This document shows positions 22,685 through 57,921 of a DNA stretch of 64,000 nucleotides, in pieces (position 1 is the stretch's first letter; every line of letters starts with the position of its first letter). Both the position numbers and the translations under genes were made by a program. The stretch lies in NCBI GenBank assembly GCA_005400705.1, contig GCA_005400705.1_4079.1. The stretch is one strand, 5' to 3'. Source of the stretch: Escherichia coli (GTDB lineage Bacteria; Pseudomonadota; Gammaproteobacteria; Enterobacterales; Enterobacteriaceae). The notes beneath the pieces are model-generated. The model did not search any database and had not been told where the DNA came from. It was given only the letters and a program-made list of their open reading frames with translations.

Positions 22685-22771
<87 letters not shown>

Positions 22772-22826: not shown

Positions 22827-22936
<110 letters not shown>

Positions 22937-22940
22937 ATCT

Positions 22941-23011: not shown

Positions 23012-23076
23012 CAAATATATTCTTAGAAATAACATTTTTCTTGAAAATAAATACTCCATACTATATGGAGAACTAT

Positions 23077-30873: not shown

Positions 30874-30875
30874 TT

Positions 30876-31807: not shown

Positions 31808-31848
31808 TATTATAATTAACACACCAAGTAACCCAAGGGGGATGGAAA

Positions 31849-32307: not shown

Positions 32308-32308
32308 T

Positions 32309-32731: not shown

Positions 32732-33153
32732 GAGGTTATAATAAGATTTGTATTTTTGTATTTTTAGTTTGTGCATTCAATTCGTTTGGTTACTACTGTA
32801 CAGAAAATAATATTTCATATGGTTTAAATCCTTTGTGGTTTACAATTTCTAATGTAGCACAAATTGGTATTGCTCTTATGTCTGCACTTATGTTCTGTCC
32901 AATTGTCACTATGGATACTGATCATGAAAGGCTTGGATTTCTCCGTGATACTGGAGACGAACCTTACAGTAGATTGATTGTGTTGTATCCATTTATTGTT
33001 ATTTTAGGTACTAACATCCAACTTGGGTCATTATCTAATAGTGTTACATCAGCAGCTATTGCTATATTTGCATTCACATTTTTTATGGTACACAAATCAG
33101 TACTTAATTGGTATATCACAAAAATGGCAGAAGAAGGTACTAAAAATACTTGA
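32728..33153 (+). CDS. multi-TM membrane protein (hypothetical)
   Basis: Several hydrophobic segments; ATGA overlap. Confidence 0.5.
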   Translation: MRGYNKICIFVFLVCAFNSFGYYCTENNISYGLNPLWFTISNVAQIGIALMSALMFCPIVTMDTDHERLGFLRDTGDEPYSRLIVLYPFIVILGTNIQLGSLSNSVTSAAIAIFAFTFFMVHKSVLNWYITKMAEEGTKNT

Positions 33154-36361: not shown

Positions 36362-36571
36362 ATGAATTCAGTAATCTTTTTAGTAGTCGCTTTCTCTGTT
36401 AATTCCGGTGTACAAATTACCCCAATGAACTCAATGAACCAATGTTTTTCTGTACGTGACAGTACTTATGATCAAGTAAACCACATGTCACTTATGACAG
36501 TTAGTAAAGAAAGTATGTGGTGTTACAATAGTAATACTAACACAAAGCTTATTGTAGGACAAACTCAATGA
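36362..36571 (+). CDS. hypothetical protein
   Basis: SD AAGGAA. Confidence 0.5.
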   Translation: MNSVIFLVVAFSVNSGVQITPMNSMNQCFSVRDSTYDQVNHMSLMTVSKESMWCYNSNTNTKLIVGQTQ

Positions 36572-38091: not shown

Positions 38092-38119
38092 CTTGACAGA
38101 AGATATCAGTACTGTATAA
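38092..38119 (+). promoter_or_regulatory. sigma70-like promoter with extended -10
   Basis: TTGACA-GAAGATATCAGTACTG-TATAAT. Confidence 0.6.
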
Positions 38120-38165
38120 TGTTTATATCAAACGAAATCCACTTTAACAAATGATAGGAAATATT

Positions 38166-38444
38166 ATGTCTTTTTCTAAAGAAGAACGTGACCTTATTAA
38201 AAAAGCAATTTGGTTTTATGCTAATGAAGGGAAGTGCGATGAAGAAAAAGCACGTGAACTGTGTAATATCCTTGAGAAGAAACAAGAACTGAAAGTGTTT
38301 CGTATCCGTGATTTGGATGAAGGGGATCGTATTGTCCTAGCTGAAACAAAAGAAGAAGCAGAACAAATCTTCACTGATAAAAACGAAAATCCACATTGGA
38401 TGGAAGAAGTCTGTGATGTTAAAAAAGGTACTTATATCGATTGA
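38166..38444 (+). CDS. hypothetical protein
   Basis: ATG after AGGAAA (track ORF 38151-38444). Confidence 0.5.
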   Translation: MSFSKEERDLIKKAIWFYANEGKCDEEKARELCNILEKKQELKVFRIRDLDEGDRIVLAETKEEAEQIFTDKNENPHWMEEVCDVKKGTYID

Positions 38445-38469
38445 CAGTACTGAATAATAGCAGTATAAT
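38441..38469 (+). promoter_or_regulatory. sigma70-like promoter
   Basis: TTGACA-GTACTGAATAATAGCAG-TATAAT. Confidence 0.55.
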
Positions 38470-38481: not shown

Positions 38482-38540
38482 GGGAATGCAGTGAAAGGAA
38501 AGACAGCATAATCGTACTCGTCACTGCGTTCCCGCCCTTT
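38482..38540 (+). terminator. 13 bp hairpin + T-run just downstream of promoter (terminator, attenuator or small RNA)
   Basis: Arms GGGAATGCAGTGA / TCACTGCGTTCCC with a 26 nt loop, followed by GCCCTTTT. Confidence 0.45.
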
Positions 38541-38562
38541 TAAATTAAATGAGGAATTAACT

Positions 38563-38871
38563 ATGTTTCAAACTAACACTCAAGGTTTTGTAATCATCGA
38601 TTTGAATCAAAACAGCGGTTATTGGATGAAACCTACTGACGCATGTATGCAGTTTGATTTCTTAGGTTACAGAATTAGTGTAAGTACTGGTGCTTCTGTA
38701 CTGAGAGGTGGTTGTATCGTTGAACATCTGGTAACTGATCCAGAAGGTCGTGAGTATGAAATCGCAGGTTCAGTACAAGATGCCATTATGTTTGTATGTC
38801 AGCGTGAAATGAATGGTTCGAATTCAAATGCACTGACTCATGCTCTTTCTCAAGAAGTGGAGGTTCGTTAA
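38563..38871 (+). CDS. hypothetical protein
   Basis: SD GAGGAA. Confidence 0.5.
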   Translation: MFQTNTQGFVIIDLNQNSGYWMKPTDACMQFDFLGYRISVSTGASVLRGGCIVEHLVTDPEGREYEIAGSVQDAIMFVCQREMNGSNSNALTHALSQEVEVR

Positions 38872-39116
38872 TGAAATATATTGTAGCAGTACTAATCGCT
38901 TTTCTACTCACTGCATGTGATGCTTCTACCAAAGAACGTACAAGTGATTTTGTTCTACCTGCTGAATTAAAAGAAGCAGGGTGTAAGATTTATCGTATGC
39001 AACAAGATGGTGCTGGTGCGACTTTGTACACTGTGTACTGTCCTAATGCAAACACTTCTACGTCGCATACGAGTGGGAAAATTCGTATGAATACATCAGT
39101 GGTTCATGGAGAATAA
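38871..39116 (+). CDS. putative lipoprotein
   Basis: Signal peptide ending in lipobox LTAC (MKYIVAVLIAFLLTACDAS). Confidence 0.55.
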   Translation: MKYIVAVLIAFLLTACDASTKERTSDFVLPAELKEAGCKIYRMQQDGAGATLYTVYCPNANTSTSHTSGKIRMNTSVVHGE

Positions 39117-39118
39117 CA

Positions 39119-39487
39119 ATGAGTCTTGATACAACTCGTGCAGCAAATATCTTAGAACGTTTGAATGATGAAGAATATCTTGCTAATGCAAAATATCAGC
39201 TTGAAAAACTCATTCGAAATGTAAAATATGTTGATATCACTACACAGCTTCCACTAGATGAATATCATAAGCTAAACGAAAATATTGTATATCACCCAAA
39301 TGAAATTTGGATTGAGTGGGAATCATGGACCCATTCGGTTCTCCGTATCGAGGGCTATTGTGTGAAATATGAAAGTTCACCAGGTGATTTTACAAAAAAA
39401 CTGTCGATATTGTGCACTGACACACATGAAATAGTTGAGGTGAATTTGAATCATATGAAGGGTTGCCGTTGGGGAGATCTTAAATGA
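39119..39487 (+). CDS. hypothetical protein
   Basis: SD GGAGAA. Confidence 0.5.
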   Translation: MSLDTTRAANILERLNDEEYLANAKYQLEKLIRNVKYVDITTQLPLDEYHKLNENIVYHPNEIWIEWESWTHSVLRIEGYCVKYESSPGDFTKKLSILCTDTHEIVEVNLNHMKGCRWGDLK

Positions 39488-39759
39488 TTAAAAAACTATT
39501 GACTGTGTTTGTTGTATTCTGTACAATGTTTCTTACAGCATGTAATGATGACGGCAGGTTTAGTGCAAAAGACTTAGTTCGTCAGGATTGTACATTCACA
39601 GGCAAGTCTTTTATTAACGAGTATGAAATATGTACACAATCAGGTCGTATCTGTGGTGGTTGGGAAAAACGTCAGGAGCGATTGTATGTATATGAATGCC
39701 CTGGACATCACAACAAAGTACTAAGCACACACAAACTTGTTTATGATAAGGTTGAATAA
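39484..39759 (+). CDS. putative lipoprotein
   Basis: Signal peptide with lipobox LTAC (MIKKLLTVFVVFCTMFLTACNDD). Confidence 0.55.
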   Translation: MIKKLLTVFVVFCTMFLTACNDDGRFSAKDLVRQDCTFTGKSFINEYEICTQSGRICGGWEKRQERLYVYECPGHHNKVLSTHKLVYDKVE

Positions 39760-39974
39760 TGACTACCAATGAAATGATGCAGGTTATTTGGGATAAAGGT
39801 TGTGATATTAAAATCACTAGTACTGATGTTCGTGTATTCAAAACTGAATATATGGAGTACTTGGATCTTGATACTTATAATAATATTGTATCAATCGAAC
39901 ACAAAGGTGCAGTACTGGAAACGATTGATGTAGTACTCAAGAAAGCTACCGACCTATTAGGAGTGGCAGTGTGA
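39759..39974 (+). CDS. hypothetical protein
   Basis: 71 aa ORF, overlapping stop/start. Confidence 0.45.
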   Translation: MTTNEMMQVIWDKGCDIKITSTDVRVFKTEYMEYLDLDTYNNIVSIEHKGAVLETIDVVLKKATDLLGVAV

Positions 39975-40125
39975 ATAACAAAGAGTGGGAAGATTACCGC
40001 AAGAAGTGCCGAGAGTTTGATAAAGAACTCACAGGTGCAGTGAACGCGGTAATGTGGGTATCTGCAATTATTGCAGTACTTGGTTTGGGTGCTATTATTA
40101 TTAATAAATTATTGTAAGGACTAAT

Positions 40126-40326
40126 ATGTTTACTTTATATCTTGCAGTAGTACTAACTAATGGTGAAATCACTCGCACCGTTGGTGAAGGTGTATATAAA
40201 ACACCTGAGCAGTGTTACTCTGCAACTCATTGGCCTCGTGATGCTGGTGATGAATCTCGCACTGAATACAAATGTATGAAGGTTAAAGGTGATTTTGTAA
40301 ATCTAAAGGTTATTGAGACTAAGTAA
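40126..40326 (+). CDS. hypothetical protein
   Basis: SD AAGGA. Confidence 0.45.
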   Translation: MFTLYLAVVLTNGEITRTVGEGVYKTPEQCYSATHWPRDAGDESRTEYKCMKVKGDFVNLKVIETK

Positions 40327-40844
40327 TGGATATTAATGAGTTGTTGAAATTAGTGTTTAATCGTGAACGCCGCGATACAAGACCAATTGAATATCAAGAT
40401 GTGATACGCATTGAAACTGATTTCTGTTATGGTAAAACAACTCATGACCTTTTGAATCTCTCTGGAAAACGCTATGCTGATGTTTGTTTTTCAGAGAGAA
40501 GTGATGGTTCAGAAATAACGAGTACTGATATTGTTTGTTACGCACGCAGTGCTGATAAATCTTATGAAATAGAACTTATATATTCCCCTAGTTCTAAAAC
40601 AAATCATCACCGCCATATTTTATATGATGTTTACACACCACCTGGTATTGCTGAATATTTTGTTATTGATTATAGTACTGAAGAAAATGTGTTTCAACAA
40701 AGTTTGATTCATAACTTTGAGGTGAATGATCCATTAGTACCAAAGTTGTTCAAACTACTTGACACCATAGATGTTGATTTTGAATTTGTTATGTGCATTA
40801 GAACTTCTTTATTCAATGAATTCATGGAACTTTTTAATATATGA
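40326..40844 (+). CDS. hypothetical protein, EExFFQxS-motif paralog family
   Basis: Motif TEENVFQQSLIHNFEV. Confidence 0.6.
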   Translation: MDINELLKLVFNRERRDTRPIEYQDVIRIETDFCYGKTTHDLLNLSGKRYADVCFSERSDGSEITSTDIVCYARSADKSYEIELIYSPSSKTNHHRHILYDVYTPPGIAEYFVIDYSTEENVFQQSLIHNFEVNDPLVPKLFKLLDTIDVDFEFVMCIRTSLFNEFMELFNI

Positions 40845-41062
40845 ATAGATACTATGTTGTGTATGAACACGTCTCTGAATTTAATAACATACGCGGGTTT
40901 TCCAGAGTAGTCACCAAGATGGATGTATTCATTCGTGCTCTTAGTGAAGTAGATGCACTGTTTAAATTGTTTGATGAAATTACAAAGTATAACACACCTA
41001 AAACACACCGCTATGTGGAAACTGTACATAGCATTATGCTAACTGAAAGTGATGAGGAATGA
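40841..41062 (+). CDS. hypothetical protein
   Basis: ATGA overlap. Confidence 0.45.
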   Translation: MNRYYVVYEHVSEFNNIRGFSRVVTKMDVFIRALSEVDALFKLFDEITKYNTPKTHRYVETVHSIMLTESDEE

Positions 41063-41065
41063 TAA

Positions 41066-41284
41066 ATGAATTTATATCTAGTTGAAGGTTTAGTACAAGT
41101 CTATAAACCAGAAGGTGAAGGTCAACGTTTTTCACACGTAGAAGAATTTAAGTACGTTGTACAGGCTGATGGTCAGTACGATGCGGAAATTCAAGTAGAT
41201 GAATCATTCCGTAAGAAAAATGAAATTGGTAAATTTCAATACCAGAACTTACAATATAAAGTATGGCCTAGTATAAATGACTAA
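41066..41284 (+). CDS. hypothetical protein
   Basis: SD GAGGAA. Confidence 0.45.
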   Translation: MNLYLVEGLVQVYKPEGEGQRFSHVEEFKYVVQADGQYDAEIQVDESFRKKNEIGKFQYQNLQYKVWPSIND

Positions 41285-41492
41285 GATGTGGTGGTGTCAT
41301 GGTGTATATAACGTGTATGTAAATGGTAGATATAAAATGTCTAGTACCTATACAAGACGTGTTAATGCGAACAACCAAGTTGATGCTGCTTGTGAGATCA
41401 TTGAGTGGTATGCTGAGTTCAATGCACCTGACTATATGTACGAAATAGTTACAATAAATGTTGTACAAATCGATACATCTTTGATACAATAA
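41277..41492 (+). CDS. hypothetical protein
   Basis: 71 aa ORF overlapping upstream gene. Confidence 0.4.
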   Translation: MTKMWWCHGVYNVYVNGRYKMSSTYTRRVNANNQVDAACEIIEWYAEFNAPDYMYEIVTINVVQIDTSLIQ

Positions 41493-41524
41493 CCACATCA
41501 AAAAAATTGCATCTGAGGATACTT

Positions 41525-42187
41525 ATGTTAGTTAATCTTAATTTCATCACTTCACCTGACTGGGCATTACGTGGAGTTTCTTTAAACTTCAAGGAAACTA
41601 TGTTTGATTACATTGGTGAGTGTACATTGGTAAATGCAACTTTTGACCCAAATCATCCGTTCTGGGCTGAAATTCATGATCCAACTGTAAACAACAATAC
41701 ATCTGTTATGACTATTGTCCAGACTAAACATGCAGGTATCCTTGCAGGTTATCGACCTGGACATGCAATTGAACACTTCACTGATTACGATGTAGTGGAT
41801 GAATACCCAATGATCCATGAAGATGGAAGTCTATACACATCTGAGGACTTCCGTGCTATCTTTAATAGTACTGATGATATTCTACCAAGTGGACGTCCAC
41901 GTCCTGAGTCTTATCTTATGCATCCATCTTATGGTGTAGCAGATACGCTTGAACAGATTATGAATAAGTACAAGAACCTAATTGAAGGTCCAGAAGAAAT
42001 TGTCCTGTGCTATCACCCAGTACTGAAGTCTGAACAACCAAAGGATGGTGGATGGCGTTGGCATAAGAATGGTGAGTATATCGGTACTAAACGAAGTAAA
42101 GAACGTTTTGAGTACTTGTATGATGAGCCAGATGTTGATGTGGTTTTGTGTTATAATTTTATTAAGGTGAAAAAGAAATGTATCTAG
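41525..42187 (+). CDS. hypothetical protein
   Basis: ATG after GAGGA (track ORF begins at a TTG at 41507). Confidence 0.5.
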   Translation: MLVNLNFITSPDWALRGVSLNFKETMFDYIGECTLVNATFDPNHPFWAEIHDPTVNNNTSVMTIVQTKHAGILAGYRPGHAIEHFTDYDVVDEYPMIHEDGSLYTSEDFRAIFNSTDDILPSGRPRPESYLMHPSYGVADTLEQIMNKYKNLIEGPEEIVLCYHPVLKSEQPKDGGWRWHKNGEYIGTKRSKERFEYLYDEPDVDVVLCYNFIKVKKKCI

Positions 42188-42417
42188 TACTAAGTTTTGT
42201 TGTTGCACTATTGTTTATGTTTTATCCTACACTAGTAGCATTAGCCACTAAACGACCGATTGTAGATATCACTACTGTATTCTTGCTAAACGTGGCATTA
42301 GTACTGGTTTCTATTATCATTCCCGTGAGCTTTACTGTTATTGATATTGTGTCGGTATTACTCTTCGTAATCAGTTATCTTATGCTTATTGAAGAAAAAC
42401 CAGTTGACAACCATTAG
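42178..42417 (+). CDS. small membrane protein (hypothetical)
   Basis: Two TM segments. Confidence 0.45.
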   Translation: MYLVLSFVVALLFMFYPTLVALATKRPIVDITTVFLLNVALVLVSIIIPVSFTVIDIVSVLLFVISYLMLIEEKPVDNH

Positions 42418-42431
42418 TAGTACTGTATAAT
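42404..42431 (+). promoter_or_regulatory. sigma70-like promoter with extended -10
   Basis: TTGACA-ACCATTAGTAGTACTG-TATAAT. Confidence 0.55.
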
Positions 42432-42477
42432 GGTTCCTGTAGTCTGAAACTTAACACTTAAACTTGAGGTAAAAAAT

Positions 42478-42804
42478 ATGCTATCAGTACTAATTTCAAT
42501 TCCGTCTTTAATTCTGATTTGGCTTCTGGTTTACGAATGCTTTATTACTGATGATAATGATAAAAAAGAGTTCTCTGAGTTGTTTATGCTTGATTCACCG
42601 ATTGTGCGTATTTTCTATACAGTCGTTGTGGTTTCAGTAATTGTATGGGTTTTGAGTTTTATCTTCCCACTCGGTGCAGTAGTTAAAACTTTGGATTTAG
42701 TTGAGAACTTTGTTGCAATTATGTGGCTAATCAAAGCACTATTTGCAGGAAATGTTAAAATTTGGATTGATATTATCAAATTCAAGTTCACGAATAAGAT
42801 GTAA
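42478..42804 (+). CDS. small membrane protein (hypothetical)
   Basis: SD GAGG; multiple hydrophobic segments. Confidence 0.5.
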   Translation: MLSVLISIPSLILIWLLVYECFITDDNDKKEFSELFMLDSPIVRIFYTVVVVSVIVWVLSFIFPLGAVVKTLDLVENFVAIMWLIKALFAGNVKIWIDIIKFKFTNKM

Positions 42805-42882
42805 CAGTCAAAATACCTCTATAGTATTAAATACTTCTGTACATATATATAGTACAGAAGTATTTCTCGTTAGAGGTTTGTT

Positions 42883-43242
42883 ATGAAAAGTTATATAAAA
42901 TTAATAGCACTTGTGTGTGCATTATTTTCATGTTTTAGTTATGGTGCAGCAGCAGAAACATATTGTCGTAGTACTAAGGGAACGTGGCATGTATTGACTA
43001 ACGACCCTAGAAATGGTAAAAATATAGTTGTTGATGGCGTGATTTATCGTTTTAAAGTAGAAAGTATTATTGGTAATAAAAAAATCTCGACTTATAGAGA
43101 TGATTCTGGTACATTAGCAAACGTAATATTAATTGTAGACCCAAGAACTGGTAATGGTGATATCTATATAGTAATTTACTTGGACTCATCGGTACGCCGT
43201 GACCTAGATATAGATAAATTGAACTTACACTGTGAAATATAG
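42883..43242 (+). CDS. secreted small protein (signal peptide)
   Basis: MKSYIKLIALVCALFSCFSYGAAA; Cys near both ends of the mature part; paralog of 43634-43984. Confidence 0.5.
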   Translation: MKSYIKLIALVCALFSCFSYGAAAETYCRSTKGTWHVLTNDPRNGKNIVVDGVIYRFKVESIIGNKKISTYRDDSGTLANVILIVDPRTGNGDIYIVIYLDSSVRRDLDIDKLNLHCEI

Positions 43243-43253
43243 GACTTAAAAAA

Positions 43254-43631
43254 ATGGTAAACACTATTTTACTTTTGTTGTTGAATATTCCAATTATTCT
43301 GTCTTTTTTAATTTCTATTTTTATGGCAGGATATTGTTTAGTTGCAGTAATTCATTTTATTTTAACAAACAAATATGTCCTAATTTCTAAGCTTGATTCT
43401 ATTTTTGCTTGCGATTCAATGGCTTATAACTTATGGTTAATTTGTTCTTGCATTATGGGAGTAACTTTCCTTCTGCATGTATTTGATGTCCTTGACCAAA
43501 AGTTCGTATACATCAGTACTGGATTGGCTCTTTATCCTGCTACGTGGTACTTGATTTACGTTGGTGATATATGGTATAGTACTTATAAAGAATATCAGTA
43601 CAAGAAATCACTTAACGTTGGAGGAAAATAA
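43254..43631 (+). CDS. multi-TM membrane protein (hypothetical)
   Basis: Hydrophobic throughout. Confidence 0.5.
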   Translation: MVNTILLLLLNIPIILSFLISIFMAGYCLVAVIHFILTNKYVLISKLDSIFACDSMAYNLWLICSCIMGVTFLLHVFDVLDQKFVYISTGLALYPATWYLIYVGDIWYSTYKEYQYKKSLNVGGK

Positions 43632-43633
43632 TC

Positions 43634-43984
43634 ATGAAAATTATTTTATTTTTTGTATGTATGTTAATGTGTGGATTGTCATATGCTGAACCATTGGAAG
43701 GTTTAGTTTGTACAGATGGTAATATTAAACATATCTATCAAGGTGATAGTGACGATCGAGATATTGTATATATTGATGGACAATCATATACGTTTGTTAA
43801 AGTGCATACAGTAGGCGACATTAGCTTCACTGAGTTTTCTAACGACACAGACCCTAACTTCTTAGCGTTTATTGAAGTAGATGTATATGAAGATAGTAAT
43901 GGTACACAATATGCTAAATTAGTTATGATGCGTCGTGGTGCTAAAGAAACTAGTTTTGGTGGCTTGTGTAAATATAAGGATTGA
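43634..43984 (+). CDS. secreted small protein (signal peptide)
   Basis: SD GGAGGAAA; MKIILFFVCMLMCGLSYAEP; similar architecture to 42883-43242. Confidence 0.5.
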   Translation: MKIILFFVCMLMCGLSYAEPLEGLVCTDGNIKHIYQGDSDDRDIVYIDGQSYTFVKVHTVGDISFTEFSNDTDPNFLAFIEVDVYEDSNGTQYAKLVMMRRGAKETSFGGLCKYKD

Positions 43985-43988
43985 TATT

Positions 43989-44180
43989 ATGTTGATTTAT
44001 CAAAGTGAAAATATTCGTGTTATGCAGCATCCCTACTTACAAATCTTTGATGTGCAGCAGTATATGGAAGGTGATGACCCAAGAACCTATGGTCGTAAGT
44101 ATGATTACTTCACTGTAAAGCAGTGTAAAAATATTAACGAAGTACGACAATTAGTTCAAGAACTTCAAAACAAAGGTTGA
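43989..44180 (+). CDS. hypothetical protein
   Basis: ATG after AAGGA (track ORF 43935-44180). Confidence 0.45.
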   Translation: MLIYQSENIRVMQHPYLQIFDVQQYMEGDDPRTYGRKYDYFTVKQCKNINEVRQLVQELQNKG

Positions 44181-44198
44181 CTTCGGTCAGCCTTTTTT
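44175..44198 (+). terminator. terminator hairpin GGTTGAC-TTCG-GTCAGCC (repeat family) overlapping a -35 box
   Basis: 7 bp stem with UUCG loop and T6 run; TTGACT inside the stem is 18 nt upstream of TATAAT. Confidence 0.6.
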
Positions 44199-44234
44199 GT
44201 TATAATTCTCTTAATAAATTAGAGGATTTTAATT

Positions 44235-44675
44235 ATGTATGTATATCGTTTTGAACTTAAATTTAGTTACATTGAACCTAACTTAGATCCTGCACGAACT
44301 GTAGGTCCGTTTGCACGGTATTCAACCAGATACAGTACTAAAAATGGATTTGACCGTTTGCTCATGACTACACCTTCTCAATTCCAACCTGAACCAACTG
44401 AGGATGGGATCTATTCAATCAAAAGTGGATGGGTATTTGGCTGTCAAAGTTTGAAAGATTTGTTCAGATTCTTCACTATGGACTTAGGTAAATTGCATCG
44501 TGCTGGGTTTGCTATATCTGTATATGAAGTTCCAGACCACCATGTAGACATTGGTCGTAATCAGGTTCAGTACTATTGCGGTAGTGCTAAATTAGTTCGT
44601 ATCATGTCAGTTAAGGAAGCAAAGGATGAGTTCCGACAAAGTAAAAGAGAAACAAATGAGGTAATATATGGATAA
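44235..44675 (+). CDS. hypothetical protein
   Basis: SD GAGGA. Confidence 0.5.
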   Translation: MYVYRFELKFSYIEPNLDPARTVGPFARYSTRYSTKNGFDRLLMTTPSQFQPEPTEDGIYSIKSGWVFGCQSLKDLFRFFTMDLGKLHRAGFAISVYEVPDHHVDIGRNQVQYYCGSAKLVRIMSVKEAKDEFRQSKRETNEVIYG

Positions 44676-45012
44676 AACTCAAATAGAATTAAAGAAATTT
44701 GTTTCATTCTATCTTCCTGATGACCCACGTAATTCACAAAAAGATATTGAATATTATAATATCCTATCTAAACAGTTAATGAGAAAGTTTCAACAGTGTT
44801 TAACAATATTCAATACAGATGGAAGACGTAGATACCGAATCGTTTCAATGAATGATGAAAACGCAAATTTCTTTGATTACGATGTAGTCTTTAGGGCATA
44901 TAATGATGATCGTATAAAATTAAATTATGATCAAATTATACTTGACCTGAATGTTATATGTGTTATAATTACTCACATAGCCGAACTTAATGGTTTTAAA
45001 GAATGGTATTGA
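44668..45012 (+). CDS. hypothetical protein
   Basis: SD GAGG. Confidence 0.5.
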   Translation: MDKTQIELKKFVSFYLPDDPRNSQKDIEYYNILSKQLMRKFQQCLTIFNTDGRRRYRIVSMNDENANFFDYDVVFRAYNDDRIKLNYDQIILDLNVICVIITHIAELNGFKEWY

Positions 45013-45026
45013 ATATAGGATAACAT

Positions 45027-45293
45027 ATGAAGCTTAAATTACAATATAATGGATTTACTTTACGTAATGATACTGAATTTATTAATCGTTCTCCTGGTGC
45101 TGAACTGTTTTTACGAGAGATGAACATTCCTTTCATCATTACTACAGTGGGCGACCGTGAAGTTCTACAATACGCAGAGCATCCGATCATTGATGTTCCT
45201 TGGTACTCTGAGCATATGTACATGGATATGGCACGTCGCTACAACTGTAAGTTCGTAGTTGAAGGTGATAAAATTACAGTCGAATTTAAATAA
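45027..45293 (+). CDS. hypothetical protein
   Basis: SD GGA. Confidence 0.45.
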   Translation: MKLKLQYNGFTLRNDTEFINRSPGAELFLREMNIPFIITTVGDREVLQYAEHPIIDVPWYSEHMYMDMARRYNCKFVVEGDKITVEFK

Positions 45294-45304
45294 GGTAAAT
45301 TAAA

Positions 45305-45598
45305 ATGATCAGTACTTCAGTTAATGAAAGCATCGTCGCTGACGTAGAAATGGTTAAAGAATGTGCAGATGAAACTCTTCGTGATATGTACATTAATGAT
45401 TTAATTACTGAATACGGTAGTCGTGGTGTACACGAATTTATTCGTTTAAGTGGAGAGTTGATGAAAAATCGAATTCGTATGAAGCTTAACGTACATCCAA
45501 AAGCATGGGCATTTACATTAAAATACGCAGAAGATATTGTGAATTTGCGTCGAACTGAAGTATATGAACGTTTGCACAATGGTATGTTAGATAAATGA
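45305..45598 (+). CDS. hypothetical protein
   Basis: SD AAGG. Confidence 0.5.
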   Translation: MISTSVNESIVADVEMVKECADETLRDMYINDLITEYGSRGVHEFIRLSGELMKNRIRMKLNVHPKAWAFTLKYAEDIVNLRRTEVYERLHNGMLDK

Positions 45599-45607
45599 TT
45601 GTAAAAT

Positions 45608-45634
45608 AGGAATTCTTAAATGAATTCCTTTTTG
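45608..45634 (+). terminator. intrinsic terminator
   Basis: AGGAATTC-TTAAAT-GAATTCCT hairpin followed by a T run. Confidence 0.6.
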
Positions 45635-45650
45635 TTTATAAGGTATAGTA

Positions 45651-45872
45651 ATGAAATATATAGTACTTGTACTGATATTATTCAGTACTGTTGTAAGTGC
45701 TAAACAAAAAGAATATGTTAAATGTATAAATTATGAAGAGAAATATGTTGAAACATATAAAAAAAGTATAATTAAAAACGTTTCGATTACTAACAGAGCA
45801 ACAATCATTGTACTTAAAAATGGGTTAATTATGCTATATAAACCACACGTTAAATGTGAAATTATTAATTGA
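45651..45872 (+). CDS. secreted small protein (signal peptide)
   Basis: MKYIVLVLILFSTVVSA. Confidence 0.5.
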   Translation: MKYIVLVLILFSTVVSAKQKEYVKCINYEEKYVETYKKSIIKNVSITNRATIIVLKNGLIMLYKPHVKCEIIN

Positions 45873-45879
45873 GGAAATT

Positions 45880-46452
45880 ATGAATCGTAAAGGTCGTTTT
45901 AAAGTATCAAAAAAGAACAAAAGTTCTAGGTTTAAACCTATTGTTTTAACAGTTAAATCTAACAAAGAATTAACTGCACTTAGTAAAAAGATAATTTCAT
46001 CTAAGATTGAAGTATCATACGTAAATTCATTAAAATATATGAATGTCAAACCACTGGACCAACTCATTTCACTTATATTTGAACGTAATGATTTTGAGAT
46101 ATCAGTAGATGATTATAGAGCCTATAATGCTGGTTTCATTAATGTTACTTGTAATAAAAAACTAACTGAGTTGGAAAATTTGTCATGTATAATAAATCTA
46201 GATAAAGGTGTAGTGAAGTACCATTTTGTACATTTCACTAATATCAATAATGGAATGGGTGTACAATCCAGACCTATAGTGCCTACGTGTGATGTTACTA
46301 AATTAGCAAAGCTCAATGATGAAGAATATTTTCAAGAAAGCATTGTAACTGAGCATTTAGATGATATAATAGCTACTTACAAAGAATGCATATGGGTGTT
46401 GAATGCTATAAAACCTAAATTGTGTTTAATGAATATTGTTCGTGATTTATGA
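45880..46452 (+). CDS. hypothetical protein, EExFFQxS-motif paralog family
   Basis: ATG after GAGGAAA (track ORF 45856-46452); motif NDEEYFQESIVTEHL. Confidence 0.55.
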   Translation: MNRKGRFKVSKKNKSSRFKPIVLTVKSNKELTALSKKIISSKIEVSYVNSLKYMNVKPLDQLISLIFERNDFEISVDDYRAYNAGFINVTCNKKLTELENLSCIINLDKGVVKYHFVHFTNINNGMGVQSRPIVPTCDVTKLAKLNDEEYFQESIVTEHLDDIIATYKECIWVLNAIKPKLCLMNIVRDL

Positions 46453-46465
46453 ATGGGGAATCGTA

Positions 46466-46909
46466 ATGAGTTGGGTAAATGTTAATAGTATTGAACTTAA
46501 CGAACAAGATATTTTTGCATTTGTAAATTTAACTAATAACACAGTACTAAAAGGGCGTTTGTTCAGTGCGAGTGATGGATATAAATGGATCTCTTTGATG
46601 GATGATAGTGGTGTGATTTATAATGTAATGCAATTACCCCAATGGGTATATAGTAACACTGCCGACGATGTTCTTGCCGCAGTTATGCGTGAGTTTGAAA
46701 AACTCCCAGGTGGTGATATCAAAAACAAAGTTTTTAATGCAGAACGGAAAAATTATACAGCACAGCAGTTGGAATCCCTTGCCATTGCTGCTTATCAAGC
46801 TGCTATTAAGAAGCCAGAGTGCGTTATTCTTAAGTATGTACCAGACTTAAAACTTACGTTGGAAGACATGGATGCATTCATTTTTACATCTGAACTTGAT
46901 CAGTACTAA
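46466..46909 (+). CDS. hypothetical protein
   Basis: Internal ATG of track ORF 46436-46909. Confidence 0.45.
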   Translation: MSWVNVNSIELNEQDIFAFVNLTNNTVLKGRLFSASDGYKWISLMDDSGVIYNVMQLPQWVYSNTADDVLAAVMREFEKLPGGDIKNKVFNAERKNYTAQQLESLAIAAYQAAIKKPECVILKYVPDLKLTLEDMDAFIFTSELDQY

Positions 46910-47024
46910 TTTAACTTTGGGACAACCATTCTTATTATGATATAATGTTTTATGTCATTCGATATAAATGACAACGGAACTATAAATATTATAGTAAAAT
47001 TTATCTCTTATAGGAGTTATAAAA

Positions 47025-47408
47025 ATGGTTGATAAATGGAATAAGAAAGATCCATCACATGATGTTGATATTTCTGGTCTAGACAATGCACATAAGCACA
47101 AGTATCTAGATTCACTAGGTCTTCTAAAACCGGACCAAAGTCTTGCACATGATCGTCCATCCCGTGAAAAAGCATTTAGCCTAGAATCACTAGGTCATGA
47201 GCTTAATCGTGTGTTTGAGGATCACCCAATCTATGTACGTGATATTATCGAGAAACTTAAAGTAACTCCTAAAGAGCACTTTAAAGCAACAGTACACTCT
47301 GCATTCCGTGCATTGCATGATTCTCTCAAGAAAACTCACAATCTTCGTAAAATTCATGATGAAATCGTGAATGCAATCGAAAGTGAAAAACATAAGTTCA
47401 AGAAGTAA
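47025..47408 (+). CDS. hypothetical protein (shares YLDSLGLL motif with 47655 gene)
   Basis: SD AGGAG; KYLDSLGLLKPDQ. Confidence 0.5.
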   Translation: MVDKWNKKDPSHDVDISGLDNAHKHKYLDSLGLLKPDQSLAHDRPSREKAFSLESLGHELNRVFEDHPIYVRDIIEKLKVTPKEHFKATVHSAFRALHDSLKKTHNLRKIHDEIVNAIESEKHKFKK

Positions 47409-47415
47409 TAAAAAG

Positions 47416-47440
47416 GGGTTGACTAAGGTCAGCCCTTTGT
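47416..47440 (+). terminator. terminator hairpin (GGTTGAC repeat family variant)
   Basis: GGGTTGAC-TAAG-GTCAGCCC followed by TTTGTTG. Confidence 0.5.
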
Positions 47441-47477
47441 TGTATCATAACTTCTCAATATAACTGAGGTATCATAT

Positions 47478-47591
47478 ATGCAAGGTTTGAAATTTGTAGT
47501 TGCTGCACTCATCGCCGCAGTACTGGTTGGTGGTGTATTCTATGTAGTGGATCAAAAAGTAAATCCACCTGCACAAGAACAATCTAAGTAA
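47478..47591 (+). CDS. small membrane peptide (37 aa)
   Basis: MQGLKFVVAALIAAVLVGGVFYVV... between two terminator hairpins. Confidence 0.35.
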   Translation: MQGLKFVVAALIAAVLVGGVFYVVDQKVNPPAQEQSK

Positions 47592-47599
47592 CAAAATAA

Positions 47600-47624
47600 G
47601 GTTGACTTCGGTCAGCCTTTTCTT
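47600..47624 (+). terminator. terminator hairpin GGTTGAC-TTCG-GTCAGCC (repeat family)
   Basis: Identical stem-loop to 44175, followed by TTTTCTTT. Confidence 0.6.
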
Positions 47625-47654
47625 TATACTATAAATATAGTCATAGAGAAAAAA

Positions 47655-48932
47655 ATGAAATCTATGGAGAGAAATCAAATGCCAAGTAATTTTACTGATA
47701 AAAATGGTGGTAACATGGCTGGTCACTCTGATAAATGGAGTGAACGCAACCGCCGTCCAAATAGTTATCAAGCAGGTCAAGGTTCACGTGGGTCACGTAA
47801 TCAAGGAACTGGTCTAGCTGGTAAAGCAAACGCAGAAGCAGGTGAAGTTAAGAGTACTGAGAACATGACTGAGCTAGAAAAGCTACGTTATGTTAATTCA
47901 TTGGGACTTCTTAATGCTACACAAAAACAACGTCTAGCTGATATGGAACGTGAAGAAAAAGAAAAATCTGCTCCTGCTAAAGAAGAACCAAAACAAGAAG
48001 CACCAAAGGCGGTTAACCCTGTCAAAGAACTGTCTGATAAGTTAGGTAAGATTTTTGCTAATAAACCACAACTTATCCAAGGTATTGTGAAAGAATTGCA
48101 ATCTGTACCTAAAGAAGAATTAAAAGTCAAAGCACAAGCTGTACTTGATGCAATGAGTGGAAATACCAGTACTGAACCAACTGAAGTATTCAGTACTATA
48201 ATGCGTGCACTTGAAGGTACGCAACAAGGTGATGTGCCTGCACAAGAGGAAGTAAGTCTTGAAAGCGTACTTAAAACATTTGATAGTATTGGTAAAGAAG
48301 ACCGTGCTAATGCTCAACAAGTTAAGAATGTACTAGCTAAGTTAGAAAACCGTCTGGAAGGTAAAGACGATAAGATTAAATTAGTATCTGATGCAGTTAA
48401 CGATGCACTTAAATCTTACGTACAAGGTGAAAAGAGTCGTTTTGTAACTGCAATGGATGCTGCATTCAATACTATGAAAAAGTATGAAGCTGATCACGGT
48501 GAGAAGGTTACACGAGATGGTTATCTGATGCGTGATGATGAAGAAGGTGCAGTAGAACAGAACGATGTTCATTCAGACGAAGAAATTGATGACATGGAAG
48601 CTGAACTGTCACAAGACCGCCAAATGACTGAAAAATCCCATAACGAACTACAGAAATTAATGCAATGGGTTGCAGATGTTGGTGAAAAAGCTGGTGCTGA
48701 TAAGAAGAGTATAAACCGAAATCTTAGTTGGATTAAAGATAAAGTTGGTAACAACGCTCGTAAACTACAAAAAGCGTGGACTGATGTAGTGAATGGTGCT
48801 GTTGACATTGATGTTGAATCCGGTGAGGCATATGATTATGCATTGACTACACTTGATGACTCTTTCCGTGATTACGAAAATGGAAATGTAACTCCTTGGG
48901 AAAAGGACATCATGAGCAAATACGGTAAATGA
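47655..48932 (+). CDS. large hydrophilic protein (425 aa), hypothetical
   Basis: Gly/Ser/Asn-rich N-terminus, charged helical remainder; contains YVNSLGLLNATQ; exact start among three nearby ATGs uncertain. Confidence 0.55.
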   Translation: MKSMERNQMPSNFTDKNGGNMAGHSDKWSERNRRPNSYQAGQGSRGSRNQGTGLAGKANAEAGEVKSTENMTELEKLRYVNSLGLLNATQKQRLADMEREEKEKSAPAKEEPKQEAPKAVNPVKELSDKLGKIFANKPQLIQGIVKELQSVPKEELKVKAQAVLDAMSGNTSTEPTEVFSTIMRALEGTQQGDVPAQEEVSLESVLKTFDSIGKEDRANAQQVKNVLAKLENRLEGKDDKIKLVSDAVNDALKSYVQGEKSRFVTAMDAAFNTMKKYEADHGEKVTRDGYLMRDDEEGAVEQNDVHSDEEIDDMEAELSQDRQMTEKSHNELQKLMQWVADVGEKAGADKKSINRNLSWIKDKVGNNARKLQKAWTDVVNGAVDIDVESGEAYDYALTTLDDSFRDYENGNVTPWEKDIMSKYGK

Positions 48933-48942
48933 TAAAACAAAA

Positions 48943-48967
48943 GGTTGACTTCGGTCAGCCTTTTTTT
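48943..48967 (+). terminator. terminator hairpin GGTTGAC-TTCG-GTCAGCC (repeat family)
   Basis: Stem-loop followed by a T7 run. Confidence 0.6.
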
Positions 48968-49003
48968 GTAAATACAAAAGAGGAATTAAGAAGAGGGATT
49001 ACA

Positions 49004-49255
49004 ATGAAAAAATATATTATATTTGGAATTGTATTATTTTCCAGTACTACTTATGGTGCAGATTATCATTGCTCCGTAGCAAGGCAGGATTTCAGAAATG
49101 GGGAGTTCTATACTACCTCATACACAAAAGGAATAATACACGACACCGACAGAACTATTGGATTTAATGCGTTTGACAACAAAGATTCATATACTTCAGG
49201 TATACTATCTGAGCGTAAGACGGATGTACTCGGAATAGAAAAAGAGTTTCGGTGA
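49004..49255 (+). CDS. secreted small protein (signal peptide)
   Basis: ATG after AGAGGG (track ORF 48929-49255); MKKYIIFGIVLFSSTTYGA. Confidence 0.5.
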   Translation: MKKYIIFGIVLFSSTTYGADYHCSVARQDFRNGEFYTTSYTKGIIHDTDRTIGFNAFDNKDSYTSGILSERKTDVLGIEKEFR

Positions 49256-49259
49256 TTCC

Positions 49260-49589
49260 GTGGCAATGTGTAATGACATTGAAAGTACTAAAAAAATTTA
49301 TTATAATAATGAAATAAATTATCGTTTTCATAATTTAACCACAAATAAAAGTTTACTATTTTACAATTGTAAAGAAGTAAAACTCCCACCAGACAATAGC
49401 TGTACTCCAACTAATCAACCCCCAGCACAATGTAATACTCCCTCTGAACCTGATAAAAATAAAAAAGACAAAGATAAAGATAAAAAAGAAGACAAAAAAC
49501 CTTTAAAAGATAAAAAGAAAGATAAAAAACCTAATCCGTTTAAAAATAATAAACCAGCACAACCCGATATGACGTGTAAAATAAAATAA
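49260..49589 (+). CDS. hypothetical protein with K/D-rich low-complexity tail
   Basis: GTG start; Cys-containing N-part then KDKDKDKKEDKKPLKDKKKDKK. Confidence 0.4.
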   Translation: MAMCNDIESTKKIYYNNEINYRFHNLTTNKSLLFYNCKEVKLPPDNSCTPTNQPPAQCNTPSEPDKNKKDKDKDKKEDKKPLKDKKKDKKPNPFKNNKPAQPDMTCKIK

Positions 49590-49598
49590 GGATATAAA

Positions 49599-50018
49599 AT
49601 GAAAAAGATTTTTTTAAGTATTATTTTAGTACTTTTTAGTTTTAATGTATATGCAGCAGATGCTAAACAGGTTGCTAATACAGTAAAAGATGTTATAGTA
49701 GACAATGCTCCTACCTTAGAGGAAATTGGGGTAAAAACTTGTGATATTGTAATATATAATTTAGTTAATGATGAACGAGTTATGTTGAATACGTATGAAC
49801 AAGTAGTCCCATTGGTTGAATCTGGTGCTGCTTTTAGCTTTACATATAAAGTTAAATTAACAGGAGGGGTTGAAGTTAATCTTGACATTGATACCGCTTC
49901 AGTACTAAAAGATAAACTAGGATATGTGTTCAATCGTATTCGTGAAGAAGGTCATCTTAAGTATGTTTATGAAAGTAAAATACTAAAACGTGCAATAGTT
50001 ATAGAAAACTGTAAATGA
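49599..50018 (+). CDS. secreted protein (signal peptide)
   Basis: SD AAGGA; MKKIFLSIILVLFSFNVYA. Confidence 0.55.
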   Translation: MKKIFLSIILVLFSFNVYAADAKQVANTVKDVIVDNAPTLEEIGVKTCDIVIYNLVNDERVMLNTYEQVVPLVESGAAFSFTYKVKLTGGVEVNLDIDTASVLKDKLGYVFNRIREEGHLKYVYESKILKRAIVIENCK

Positions 50019-50027
50019 TAATAAAAG

Positions 50028-50051
50028 GGTTGACTTCGGTCAGCCTTTTTT
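50028..50051 (+). terminator. terminator hairpin GGTTGAC-TTCG-GTCAGCC (repeat family)
   Basis: Stem-loop followed by a T6 run, then -10-like TATGAT. Confidence 0.6.
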
Positions 50052-50087
50052 GTTATGATGTTGATATTAACTACAGAGGATAAAGTA

Positions 50088-50729
50088 ATGACTAAGCAAG
50101 AAATATTCAAAACTTTAATTGACATTTTGCGTCCATCAAAAACTCGTTGTGCGATGGAGTTTGATATTCCTTATGCTGAACGCGTAATCTTTCCACAAGT
50201 TAAAGCTGCTGGACTTACTTTGCTTGGAATGGGGATGTACTCTGTAGTAGTTGAACATAAAAACTATCCTGGGCGTGCATTTAAAGTAACCACTTCACGC
50301 TGGGATGGTTTTCGTGCTTATGCAATGTACTGCATTGAAAACGCAGGAACCAAGTTTCTTCCAGTGATCTACAGTGCAAACGAACAAGGAAACTTTGGAT
50401 GGTATGAGATGGACAAGTACTATCCTATAATTAAACAAAAAAATAATTATGATGACTTTGTTAGTACTAAAATTGGAGATTTATATTCTTATGCACATGC
50501 TGGTCAGTATGCTACTTCAGTGAATGATATGCGTGGAAATTCTGAAGAGATTGCTATTGCGACGGTCGCTGCTAACATCATGAAAGAGTTTCACGGGTGT
50601 TTTGTACCAGACATTCATTCCAGTAATGTCATGATGGATAAAGATGGCAATGTATTCATTACTGATCCTCTTTCGTGTGATGTACGTAGAGAAATACCAG
50701 TTACTGAAGAAGATCCAGTTTTTTATTGA
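50088..50729 (+). CDS. protein-kinase-like (phosphotransferase fold) protein
   Basis: ATG after AGAGGA (track ORF 50055-50729); catalytic-loop-like FVPDIHSSNVMMDKDGNVFITDP compares with aminoglycoside-phosphotransferase HGDLxxxNxx...DGxxxxIDL. Confidence 0.45.
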   Translation: MTKQEIFKTLIDILRPSKTRCAMEFDIPYAERVIFPQVKAAGLTLLGMGMYSVVVEHKNYPGRAFKVTTSRWDGFRAYAMYCIENAGTKFLPVIYSANEQGNFGWYEMDKYYPIIKQKNNYDDFVSTKIGDLYSYAHAGQYATSVNDMRGNSEEIAIATVAANIMKEFHGCFVPDIHSSNVMMDKDGNVFITDPLSCDVRREIPVTEEDPVFY

Positions 50730-51075: not shown

Positions 51076-51414
51076 ATGGAACAATATTTTGAATTAATAA
51101 ACAAAGTATCATTTTATGTAGTATCTTTGGTTTGGGTGTATTATATGTTTTGCTACATTATTGCATTCTTCCGATACACTACTTTATATGAACGTATCTA
51201 CTATGATGCCCCAATTTCATTCTTGATGTTTTGTGCATGTACGTGGGGAATATTAGAAGTACTGATATGTGGGTATAGTACTGATGAATTAAATCTGGTA
51301 TCGGTGTTGACTGGGTTTTCATTTGTTGTTATGATAGCTGCCGTTCCAGTATGGTTGTTCTTTGGACTAGTTCATCGCATTGATATATGGCGTTCTAATA
51401 TCCCTGAAAAGTAA
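51076..51414 (+). CDS. small multi-TM protein, array A member 1
   Basis: About 112 aa, 3-4 TM segments, FFRYTTLYERIYYDAPI after TM1, C-terminal RSNIPEK. Confidence 0.55.
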   Translation: MEQYFELINKVSFYVVSLVWVYYMFCYIIAFFRYTTLYERIYYDAPISFLMFCACTWGILEVLICGYSTDELNLVSVLTGFSFVVMIAAVPVWLFFGLVHRIDIWRSNIPEK

Positions 51415-51423
51415 GGATTGGTA

Positions 51424-51765
51424 ATGATTTATTACACTAACATGTTTGCCTATGCTGTTGCTTGCATTTACATTGTTTACTTCTTATTCGGTGGAGTACT
51501 GTGCTTCTTTAAGTACAAAACGTTGTTCAACCGAATGTACCCAAATCATCCAATTGTAGTTGTACTTTTGATTCTTTCAGTTTCTCAAATAATCGTTGAA
51601 ACTACAATGGGTATCAGTAGTGTACATTATAGTTTTGGTACTATAGTAATTATTACTATGCTTATTGCATACATTTTAGTACTTGGATATGGTATCTTTG
51701 GTAATATTGGTATGAAAATGTATCATCGAATTAAAACATTACGTGATAATCTACCGGAGCGTTGA
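51424..51765 (+). CDS. small multi-TM protein, array A member 2
   Basis: ATG after AAGGA (track ORF begins at a TTG at 51418); FFKYKTLFNRMYPNHPI; C-terminal LRDNLPER. Confidence 0.55.
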   Translation: MIYYTNMFAYAVACIYIVYFLFGGVLCFFKYKTLFNRMYPNHPIVVVLLILSVSQIIVETTMGISSVHYSFGTIVIITMLIAYILVLGYGIFGNIGMKMYHRIKTLRDNLPER

Positions 51766-51766
51766 T

Positions 51767-52111
51767 ATGTATAATTTGAACCTAATCTCATATATTATAA
51801 CAACACTGTTTACATTCTATGCCTTTGTTGGTATAATCCTACTGTACTTTAAATTTTATAAAGTGTTTAACCGTTTCTATCCTTCAATGGAGAATGAGTT
51901 TTTCTTTGTGTTGTACGTATGTTACACATTCATGGCTACATGTTTCACTGTAGTCGATGGTGTCATCGGCATTAAAACTGCTGCACCAAATGGTAGTACG
52001 CTGGTTGCATTTATTCTTACCGGATTCCTTGCAACTTATATTGCCTTCATTGCAACATGGTCAGTGGTTGAATTTCTCTTGCGACTACGAAAGAATATGC
52101 CGAATCGATAG
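51767..52111 (+). CDS. small multi-TM protein, array A member 3
   Basis: ATG after GGAG (track ORF 51743-52111); YFKFYKVFNRFYPSMEN; C-terminal LRKNMPNR. Confidence 0.55.
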   Translation: MYNLNLISYIITTLFTFYAFVGIILLYFKFYKVFNRFYPSMENEFFFVLYVCYTFMATCFTVVDGVIGIKTAAPNGSTLVAFILTGFLATYIAFIATWSVVEFLLRLRKNMPNR

Positions 52112-54942: not shown

Positions 54943-54952
54943 AATAAAAAAA

Positions 54953-54976
54953 GGGTTGACTTAGGTCGGCCCTTTT
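54953..54976 (+). terminator. terminator hairpin (GGTTGAC repeat family variant)
   Basis: GGGTTGAC-TTAG-GTCGGCCC followed by TTTT, then -10-like TATTAT. Confidence 0.55.
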
Positions 54977-57556: not shown

Positions 57557-57557
57557 T

Positions 57558-57920: not shown

Positions 57921-57921
57921 T

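Follow-up and report, generated by a model that had tools for sequence, protein, structure and literature searches.

The question raised by the locus considered here, at positions 38871-50018 of a 64,000-nucleotide (nt) stretch of DNA (hereafter the window), is what a cluster of small proteins with export signals does for the phage that encodes it. The window is taken from contig GCA_005400705.1_4079.1, deposited as Escherichia coli in assembly GCA_005400705.1. An earlier note on it had counted two lipoproteins and at least five proteins with classical signal peptides in this cluster, and had suggested that they act on receptors or the cell envelope, for example in superinfection exclusion. 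Judged from its sequence, the window is that of an Asteriusvirus (121Q/PBECO4-like) jumbo coliphage: in a megablast search, the region 38500-50100 gave 31 full-length matches, all of them Asteriusvirus jumbo coliphages, with nt identities of 97.5-97.9% to SHEFM2K, SP27, phAPEC6 and JP4 and of 96% to 121Q and PBECO4. In all of these matches nearly every gene of the region is labelled 'hypothetical protein', and in annotated relatives the region is bracketed by a sigma-factor gene and a protein-kinase gene. The publications on Sharanji, fEgEco12 and UE-S1 and a jumbo-phage genomic overview do not mention these genes. Here, we read the region as a hyperplastic accessory region that encodes at least seven small exported proteins, belonging to six sequence-unrelated orphan families, and that is probably transcribed early. 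These would be accessory proteins acting on the envelope, most likely in exclusion or in muramidase inhibition, a reading to which we assign a probability of roughly 0.5. The suggestion of superinfection exclusion, or of action on receptors or the envelope, is plausible for the cluster proteins.

The exported proteins (p1-p7) and one companion (p6b) are encoded as follows, with lengths in amino acids (aa):

p1, 38871..39116, plus strand: 81-aa lipoprotein with an LTAC lipobox (Cys16) and Asp at +2
p2, 39484..39759, plus strand: 91-aa lipoprotein with an LTAC lipobox (Cys20), Asn at +2 and six further Cys
p3, 42883..43242, plus strand: 119-aa signal-peptide protein with invariant Cys28, Cys117 and N65-K66-K67 (predicted beta4-beta5 loop)
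p4, 43634..43984, plus strand: 116-aa signal-peptide protein with invariant Cys26, Cys112 and a G61-D62 loop
p5, 45651..45872, plus strand: 73-aa signal-peptide protein with two conserved Cys
p6, 49004..49255, plus strand: 83-aa signal-peptide protein with one Cys
p6b, 49266..49589, plus strand: protein rich in Cys and Lys, with no signal peptide, sharing a cassette with p6 and p7
p7, 49599..50018, plus strand: 139-aa signal-peptide protein with conserved Cys48 and Cys138

All seven open reading frames (ORFs) that had been singled out are present, starting at 38871, 39484, 42883, 43634, 45651, 49004 and 49599. Their export signals were scored with a script that looks for a short n-region without acidic residues (usually basic), a hydrophobic core of 7-15 residues and small residues at -3 and -1 (signal peptidase I), or for the lipobox pattern [LVI][ASTVI][GAS]C (signal peptidase II). 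As the earlier note had claimed, both lipoproteins carry L-T-A-C, at residues 13-16 in p1 (lipobox MKYIVAVLIAFLLTAC/D) and at residues 17-20 in p2 (lipobox MIKKLLTVFVVFCTMFLTAC/N). The five classical signal peptides likewise held up in this heuristic scan, with basic n-regions, hydrophobic cores of at least 10 residues and small -3/-1 residues. Cleavage is predicted at ...FSYG/AAAE or ...AAA/E in p3, ...LSYA/EPLE in p4, ...VVSA/KQKE in p5, ...TTYG/ADYH in p6 and ...NVYA/ADAK in p7. Further, the Pfam lipid attachment site LPAM_1 matches 10 of 49 p1-family members.

These signals depend on the choice of start codon, and a Shine-Dalgarno sequence precedes every long-form ATG of p1-p7. The shorter starts annotated for p3 and p4 in 121Q (genes 188 and 190) have none and cut the proteins by 9-10 residues, thereby removing part of the signal peptide; the PHROG profiles of the two families start at the same shortened positions, which hides the signal peptides. 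For p6 the annotation errs in the other direction: CDS0182 of JP4 extends the orthologue upstream to 48929. This longer ORF crosses a terminator hairpin, and we therefore take 49004 to be the real p6 start. Orthologues were compared from vB_Ec-M-J, UE-S1, A4, Klebsiella phage RaK2 and one metagenomic contig. At 23-60% identity, they keep the signal-peptide layout even though the N-terminal letters differ, and they keep the Cys pairs of the mature parts. Export of the cluster proteins to the envelope is, on these grounds, highly probable: by their sequence features, p3-p7 are predicted to be five Sec-exported periplasmic proteins, probably stabilised by disulfides, and p1 and p2 to be lipoproteins. 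No significant family was found for any of the seven exported proteins in Pfam, NCBIfam or PADLOC.

The claim of a cluster between 38.8 and 50 kb is confirmed. Exported-protein genes are enriched inside these limits (7 of ~27 genes), the rest of the window having ~3 among ~108 ORF calls on the plus strand (Fisher p = 5e-4, a count built on crude ORF calls). Exported and membrane proteins continue well beyond both ends: from 30 to 58 kb, the heuristic scan gave ~29 candidates for membrane or signal-peptide proteins. The earlier note had overlooked this continuation, as well as the genes for small membrane proteins among the paralogues and the layout of promoters and terminators. The window has a guanine-cytosine (GC) content of 32-36%, and its plus strand holds nearly all genes up to ~59 kb.

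The cluster includes a five-gene module in which p3 and p4 each lie directly 3' of a gene for a small polytopic membrane protein. Besides p3 and p4, it consists of:

42178..42417, plus strand: 79-aa polytopic membrane protein, first gene of the module
42478..42804, plus strand: 108-aa polytopic membrane protein, directly upstream of p3
43254..43631, plus strand: 125-aa polytopic membrane protein, between p3 and p4

The earlier note had taken p3 and p4 for paralogues with conserved Cys placement, and profile comparison bears this out. By BLASTP they are weakly similar (20% identity, E 6e-5), whereas a profile-profile alignment, with five orthologues behind each profile, reaches a probability of 96% (E 2e-9), and still one of 92.8% (E 4e-7 over 62 columns) when the signal peptides are removed. 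Both families share an early mature Cys, an IDG..Y.F strand, a Gly-containing loop and a Cys in the last 2-5 residues, with the mature-N-terminal and C-terminal Cys invariant in both. The pattern of an early and a C-terminal Cys also brought up p5, p6, p7 and the products of 36362 and 40126 as possible further paralogues; these were rejected, as they show no profile similarity to p3/p4. More generally, profile comparison detected no kinship of the other exported proteins with p3/p4 or with one another. A duplicated two-gene unit was rejected as well, since the membrane proteins 42478 and 43254 show no similarity, and no mutual kinship was found among the three membrane proteins of the module. 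The most rapidly diverging module gene is 43254 (44% identity in vB_Ec-M-J). The five-gene order from 42178 to 43984 is kept in RaK2 (23-46% identity) and in the metagenomic contig, which speaks for a functional unit. When 1.84 billion representatives were searched exhaustively by profile, only four clusters were returned for the p4 family; on this evidence, the family is an orphan one, limited to RaK2-like jumbo phages.

An AlphaFold2 model of p4, built from a 15-sequence alignment, has a mean predicted local distance difference test score (pLDDT) of 80.6, with values of ~84-94 over most of the mature domain and 66 at residues 81-90. After the signal-peptide helix the model is all-beta, and its eight strands form a predicted 8-stranded beta-barrel with a PliC/MliC-like fold. 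Of its two invariant Cys, Cys26 falls in the first predicted strand and Cys112 in the eighth; the Cys pattern of p3 is the same. The MliC/PliC group of lysozyme inhibitors (COG3895 and Pfam MliC, with Brucella PhiA and Neisseria ACP among them) comprises periplasmic and membrane-bound members that are, as p3/p4 are predicted to be, small exported barrels; a disulfide stabilises these periplasmic barrels (PMC2267010, PMC8334348), and in Neisseria ACP it links the first and last strands (PMC5507604). Their SGxxY motif sits in a protruding loop, which reaches into the active site of the lysozyme (PMC8334348). When placed by strand count, the matching loop reads T-V-G-D-I-S-F in p4 and I-I-G-N-K-K-I in p3. 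What sets p3 and p4 apart from MliC/PliC is that a phage encodes them, that they are a duplicated pair and that they are co-transcribed with genes for small membrane proteins. In a viral structure library, the strong matches of the p4 model were its orthologues and a probable p3 homologue of the RaK2 group only, and a sequence search of the PDB with p4 found nothing relevant.

The first lipoprotein, p1, belongs to phrog_902 (E 4e-13), a widespread lipoprotein family of virulent phages, and tblastn found its relatives in 571 phage records. Among these are ~114 kb Vibrio phages, Vequintavirinae, Eneladusvirus, and Felixounavirus with related Ounavirinae; where the gene context was examined, small hypothetical genes surround the gene and replication genes are near. 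An alignment of 49 sequences shows no variation at the lipobox Cys, C38, P58 and K70 and hardly any at P30, V55 and C57, with further conservation at Y41, C57-P58 and G69-K70. Of 48 members, 30 have Asp at +2 and another 13 have Asn or Glu there. According to the Lol-avoidance rule in E. coli, Asp at +2 of a lipoprotein causes retention in the inner membrane, and because p1 has Asp at this position it is probably held there. Its structure model is poor (pLDDT 60), and a fold search with this poor model matched nothing. A precomputed PF16225 label, attached to every p1-family protein, was not used, as hmmscan against the current Pfam-A (E up to 10) did not reproduce it. The second lipoprotein, p2, is distributed over Asteriusvirus and a few related jumbo phages and is assigned to phrog_31263; its profile matches that of p1 weakly, over 13 columns (LYV..CP; 8.5% probability), and we claim no kinship.

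The only database labels that point to exclusion for cluster proteins are found on orthologues of these lipoproteins: 'Cor superinfection exclusion protein' for p1 in vB_Ec-M-J, and 'lytic conversion lipoprotein' for both p1 and p2 in fEgEco12. Both Cor and the T5 lipoprotein Llp act at the outer-membrane receptor FhuA. Cor (of phi80, HK022, N15 and T1) is, like p1 and p2, a small phage lipoprotein of similar length, and T5 Llp (PDB 7qjf, 8a60) is, as p1 and p2 would be, a small early lipoprotein of a virulent phage; p1 and Llp also have C-x-x-Y-x-M after the first mature Cys in common. The match to the Cor family phrog_1119 (E 0.02 to 1e-3) is, however, confined to residues 1-49. In hhalign, the probability of a match of p1 to Cor falls from 86% with the signal peptide to 0.6% for mature parts compared with seven Cor proteins, and the mature part of p2 reaches 0.3%; against verified T5 Llp, the mature parts give 0.5% (p1) and 0.2% (p2), and T5 Llp was absent from the PDB profile matches. 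The Cor motif AGYPF..W.WVS...F..T.C is absent from both. The +2 residue of Cor is Ala, Ser or Lys, whereas most p1-family members have Asp; having no Lol-avoidance residue, Cor would be sorted to the outer membrane by the same rule, whereas p1 probably would not. The 244 phage records of Cor are mostly of siphovirus type, with no jumbo phage among those listed. Because the similarity vanishes once the signal peptide is removed, we reject the 'Cor' and 'Llp' labels as signal-peptide artefacts. An o-spanin (Rz1-like) role was rejected too: p1 has Asp at +2, the mature parts contain only 2 (p1) and 1 (p2) Pro, the adjoining genes do not show the N-terminal transmembrane and coiled-coil features of an i-spanin, and the PHROG Rz-like match has an E of 0.26.

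The remaining genes, p5 and the p6-p6b-p7 cassette, vary in presence between relatives. Identities in relatives are 44-49% for p5, which is missing from UE-S1, and 41% for p7 in vB_Ec-M-J, and neither UE-S1 nor A4 has the p6-p6b-p7 cassette. The p6b protein contains six Cys and a Lys/Asp-rich low-complexity tail (KNKKDKDKDKKEDKK...). JP4 and 121Q share its ATG at 49266 but not the GTG at 49260. A programmed +1 frameshift from p6 into p6b at TTT-CGG-TGA was rejected, the slippery TTT being TTC in JP4 and 121Q. Exported and membrane proteins as a group diverge faster than their neighbours, with mean identities of 71% versus 85% in vB_Ec-M-J (Mann-Whitney p 0.03) and 81% versus 89% in UE-S1 (Mann-Whitney p 0.04). 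The vB_Ec-M-J genome also has two extra genes for small membrane proteins, one at 20079-20315, just after p5, for which flanking stem-loops were not found, and one at 22104-22367, in a cassette of small genes between stem-loops (21901, 22681). Both are weakly labelled 'immunity to superinfection'; their PHROG/Pfam Imm matches are not significant (E 0.014-6).

Early transcription by the host RNA polymerase is suggested by three promoters, because they match the sigma-70 consensus perfectly:

38093-38120, plus strand: sigma-70 promoter, perfect TTGACA/TATAAT consensus, 5' of a gene run
38441..38469, plus strand: sigma-70 promoter, TTGACA-17-TATAAT, 12/12 matches, heading the packed run 38563-42417 (p1, p2)
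42404..42431, plus strand: sigma-70 promoter, TTGACA-16-TATAAT, heading 42478-44180 (p3, p4) and overlapping the end of 42178-42417

By our own estimate, ~0.04 perfect consensus matches would be expected in the region compared with the three observed, all on the plus strand, and these are probably strong early promoters. A second class of regulatory element is a repeated 22-nt stem-loop:

44173..44194, plus strand: copy 1, AAGGTTGACTTCGGTCAGCCTT followed by a T-run, terminator of the p3/p4 operon; its TTGACT with a downstream TATAAT forms a promoter
47598..47619, plus strand: copy 2, identical to copy 1
48941..48962, plus strand: copy 3, identical, left boundary of the p6-p6b-p7 cassette
50026..50047, plus strand: copy 4, one mismatch, right cassette boundary and promoter for the protein-kinase gene

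These are the four copies in the window at up to one mismatch, with 0 expected by chance; a diverged copy lies at 54952-54973. A T-run follows each copy, and at three of the four sites the internal TTGACT serves as the -35 for a downstream -10. The stem-loop is kept in all relatives examined, including RaK2, and marks the boundaries of insertions and deletions between them. Where the cassette is empty, UE-S1 has a single hybrid stem-loop copy, and we infer that p6-p6b-p7 is a cassette exchanged by recombination between the repeated stem-loops. Shuffling of this kind is mediated in T4-like phages by composite promoter-early/stem-loop elements, called PeSLs (PMC2839356, PMC4122927). As here, these are repeated intergenic stem-loops with sigma-70 hexamers that flank variable cassettes of orphan ORFs (ORFans) in a hyperplastic region. 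The present elements differ in that they belong to a jumbo myovirus that is not T4-like, have the -35 hexamer inside the stem-loop itself and have a different sequence.

Taken as a whole, a role in protecting the envelope fits the sigma-70 promoters, the accessory region prone to insertions and deletions, the fast divergence and the PliC/MliC-like fold of the paralogues, as well as the candidate Imm-like genes inserted at the same place in relatives. Soon after infection, the exported proteins would fill the periplasm and membranes and shield the envelope of the infected cell. Here, p3/p4 would be functional analogues of T4 Spackle (gp61.3), which is made early, carries a signal peptide and a disulfide bond, and inhibits the gp5 tail lysozyme in the periplasm (PMC7677548): the barrel would bind and block a peptidoglycan hydrolase by means of its invariant beta4-beta5 loop (GNKK in p3, GD in p4), at the position of the lysozyme-binding loop of MliC/PliC. 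The likeliest target would be the GH24 tail lysozyme brought in when another phage of this group superinfects; Asteriusvirus has a GH24 T4-type lysozyme, annotated as baseplate hub/tail lysozyme in 121Q (PMC12805682). The partner membrane proteins could hold p3/p4 at the inner membrane, and the lipoproteins and p5-p7 may act elsewhere on the envelope, for example on receptors or the injection machinery. Spackle is, as p3/p4 would be, a small early phage protein of the periplasm whose signal peptide is cleaved and which has one disulfide. It is, however, an alpha-helical bundle without sequence similarity to p4, which is predicted to be an all-beta barrel, and the cluster proteins gave no PHROG or Pfam match to it; the analogy proposed is one of function only. 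That p3/p4 inhibit a peptidoglycan hydrolase is a tentative proposal, possible but less likely than not. A bolder joint reading, which we regard as speculative and rather improbable, would make 42178-43984 a two-layer superinfection-exclusion device of RaK2-like phages, and the p1 family an inner-membrane lipoprotein defence. The three small membrane proteins would take an Imm-like role in the inner membrane, with the two paralogous PliC-fold barrels in the periplasm, where the GD/GNKK loop, in place of SGxxY, would block the GH24 tail lysozymes of incoming phages and thus do Spackle's job with a bacterial-type inhibitor fold. The p1-family defence would span Felixounavirus, Vequintavirinae, Eneladusvirus, Asteriusvirus and large Vibrio phages.

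Several points weigh against this account. MliC/PliC proteins inhibit C-type lysozymes, not GH24 enzymes. The likeness of p4 to them is one of fold only, with a sequence identity of 3-7%; p3 and p4 have no Pfam MliC match (E up to 1), and hhalign against an alignment of the Ec, Pa and Ba MliC/PliC proteins gives a probability of at most 0.2%. SGxxY is absent at the loop position in both, being replaced by GD and GNKK. The proposed target of PhiA, which has the PliC fold without SGxxY, was not inhibited in vitro (PMC8334348), and therefore the fold alone is no proof of inhibitor activity. Beyond the barrels, the timing of expression comes from promoter consensus only, and the main caveat is that the signal peptides were scored with our own hydrophobicity, charge and -3/-1 script and not with SignalP or LipoP.

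Among the other explanations, manipulation of the envelope for ends unrelated to excluding phages is conceivable, though we find it doubtful. Such proteins could mask the phage's own receptor against loss of progeny on debris, block host periplasmic proteases, colicins or type VI effectors, or change permeability or outer-membrane vesicles during the long jumbo-phage cycle. Precedent exists in T5 Llp, which also masks its receptor and thereby spares progeny from loss on debris. Nothing specific speaks in favour of this explanation here, and the fast divergence and cassette turnover suit arms races between phages, or between phage and host, better than housekeeping. Control of lysis timing, with periplasmic proteins like T4 RI and antiholins sensing events in the periplasm and binding the periplasmic parts of holin-like membrane partners (the pairs 42478/p3 and 43254/p4), draws on the alternation of membrane and secreted-protein genes within one operon in three lineages, and T4 RI is itself a small exported periplasmic protein, which counts for it. 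Yet the annotated relatives have no endolysin or spanin gene nearby, searches of Pfam, PHROGs and NCBIfam assigned none of the three membrane proteins to a holin family, a PliC-like fold does not resemble RI and the perfect host sigma-70 promoter is typical of early genes, and we judge this explanation unlikely.

Finally, the cluster could be a by-product of the AT-rich, hydrophobic codon bias of a hyperplastic region, with some of its N-termini being uncleaved membrane anchors, or its genes dispensable ORFans without a current function. The 32-36% GC of the window, its many small hydrophobic ORFs (the ~29 candidates at 30-58 kb), the single Cys of p6 and the dispensability of p5-p7 in UE-S1 and A4 are in line with this. 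It is hard to reconcile, however, with n-h-c layouts, small -3/-1 residues, lipoboxes and Cys pairs that are kept at 23-60% identity, with the confident globular model of p4, with the retention of p1 in 571 phage records, or with the enrichment (p = 5e-4), and it appears very improbable. Action on the envelope, most likely in exclusion or muramidase inhibition, is the reading that we prefer.

Outside the cluster, several further gene groups were observed. Just upstream, 36362-36571 encodes a 69-aa ORF with a hydrophobic N-terminus without a basic residue and with two conserved Cys; it is kept as far as RaK2 and, from its sequence, may be another exported protein. A second envelope-directed group lies at 30870-33153, where a 153-aa protein with a classical signal peptide (30870-31331; ...SPVHA/EEQ) is followed by three membrane proteins (31331, 32309, 32728). 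Downstream, tandem arrays at 51076-52111 and 55854-58293 encode small (104-141 aa) membrane proteins with three transmembrane segments; within the first array, BLASTP reveals paralogy among members (E 2e-9 and 1.5e-5), and weak links join the two arrays. Seven transfer RNA (tRNA) genes (Gly, three Ser, Met, Asn and Thr) cluster at 17973-23012, including a tRNA-Ser at 21499-21590 with the unusual anticodon ACT. Among them, at 17769-19305, four small (54-66 aa) ORFs have a common N-terminal motif, 'MTH[EK]EW', which stands at the very start in 17769, 18980 and 19141 and six residues in for 18269; these look like a paralogous mini-family.

The sequences discussed here are already public as hypothetical proteins, and what appears to be new is their reading. 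Jumbo phages of the 121Q/RaK2 group are in development for therapy while most of their 600+ genes are still called 'hypothetical'. For their annotation, the analysis yields corrections to the truncated p3/p4 starts in 121Q and PHROG, the over-extended p6 in JP4 and the spreading Cor/Llp labels. The stem-loops would document PeSL-like shuffling elements outside T4-like phages. If the proposal for p3/p4 is true, they would be the first beta-barrel inhibitors of peptidoglycan hydrolases to be encoded by phages, and thereby a second, structurally unrelated answer to the problem that T4 solves with Spackle, in which phages use the fold of bacterial lysozyme inhibitors.

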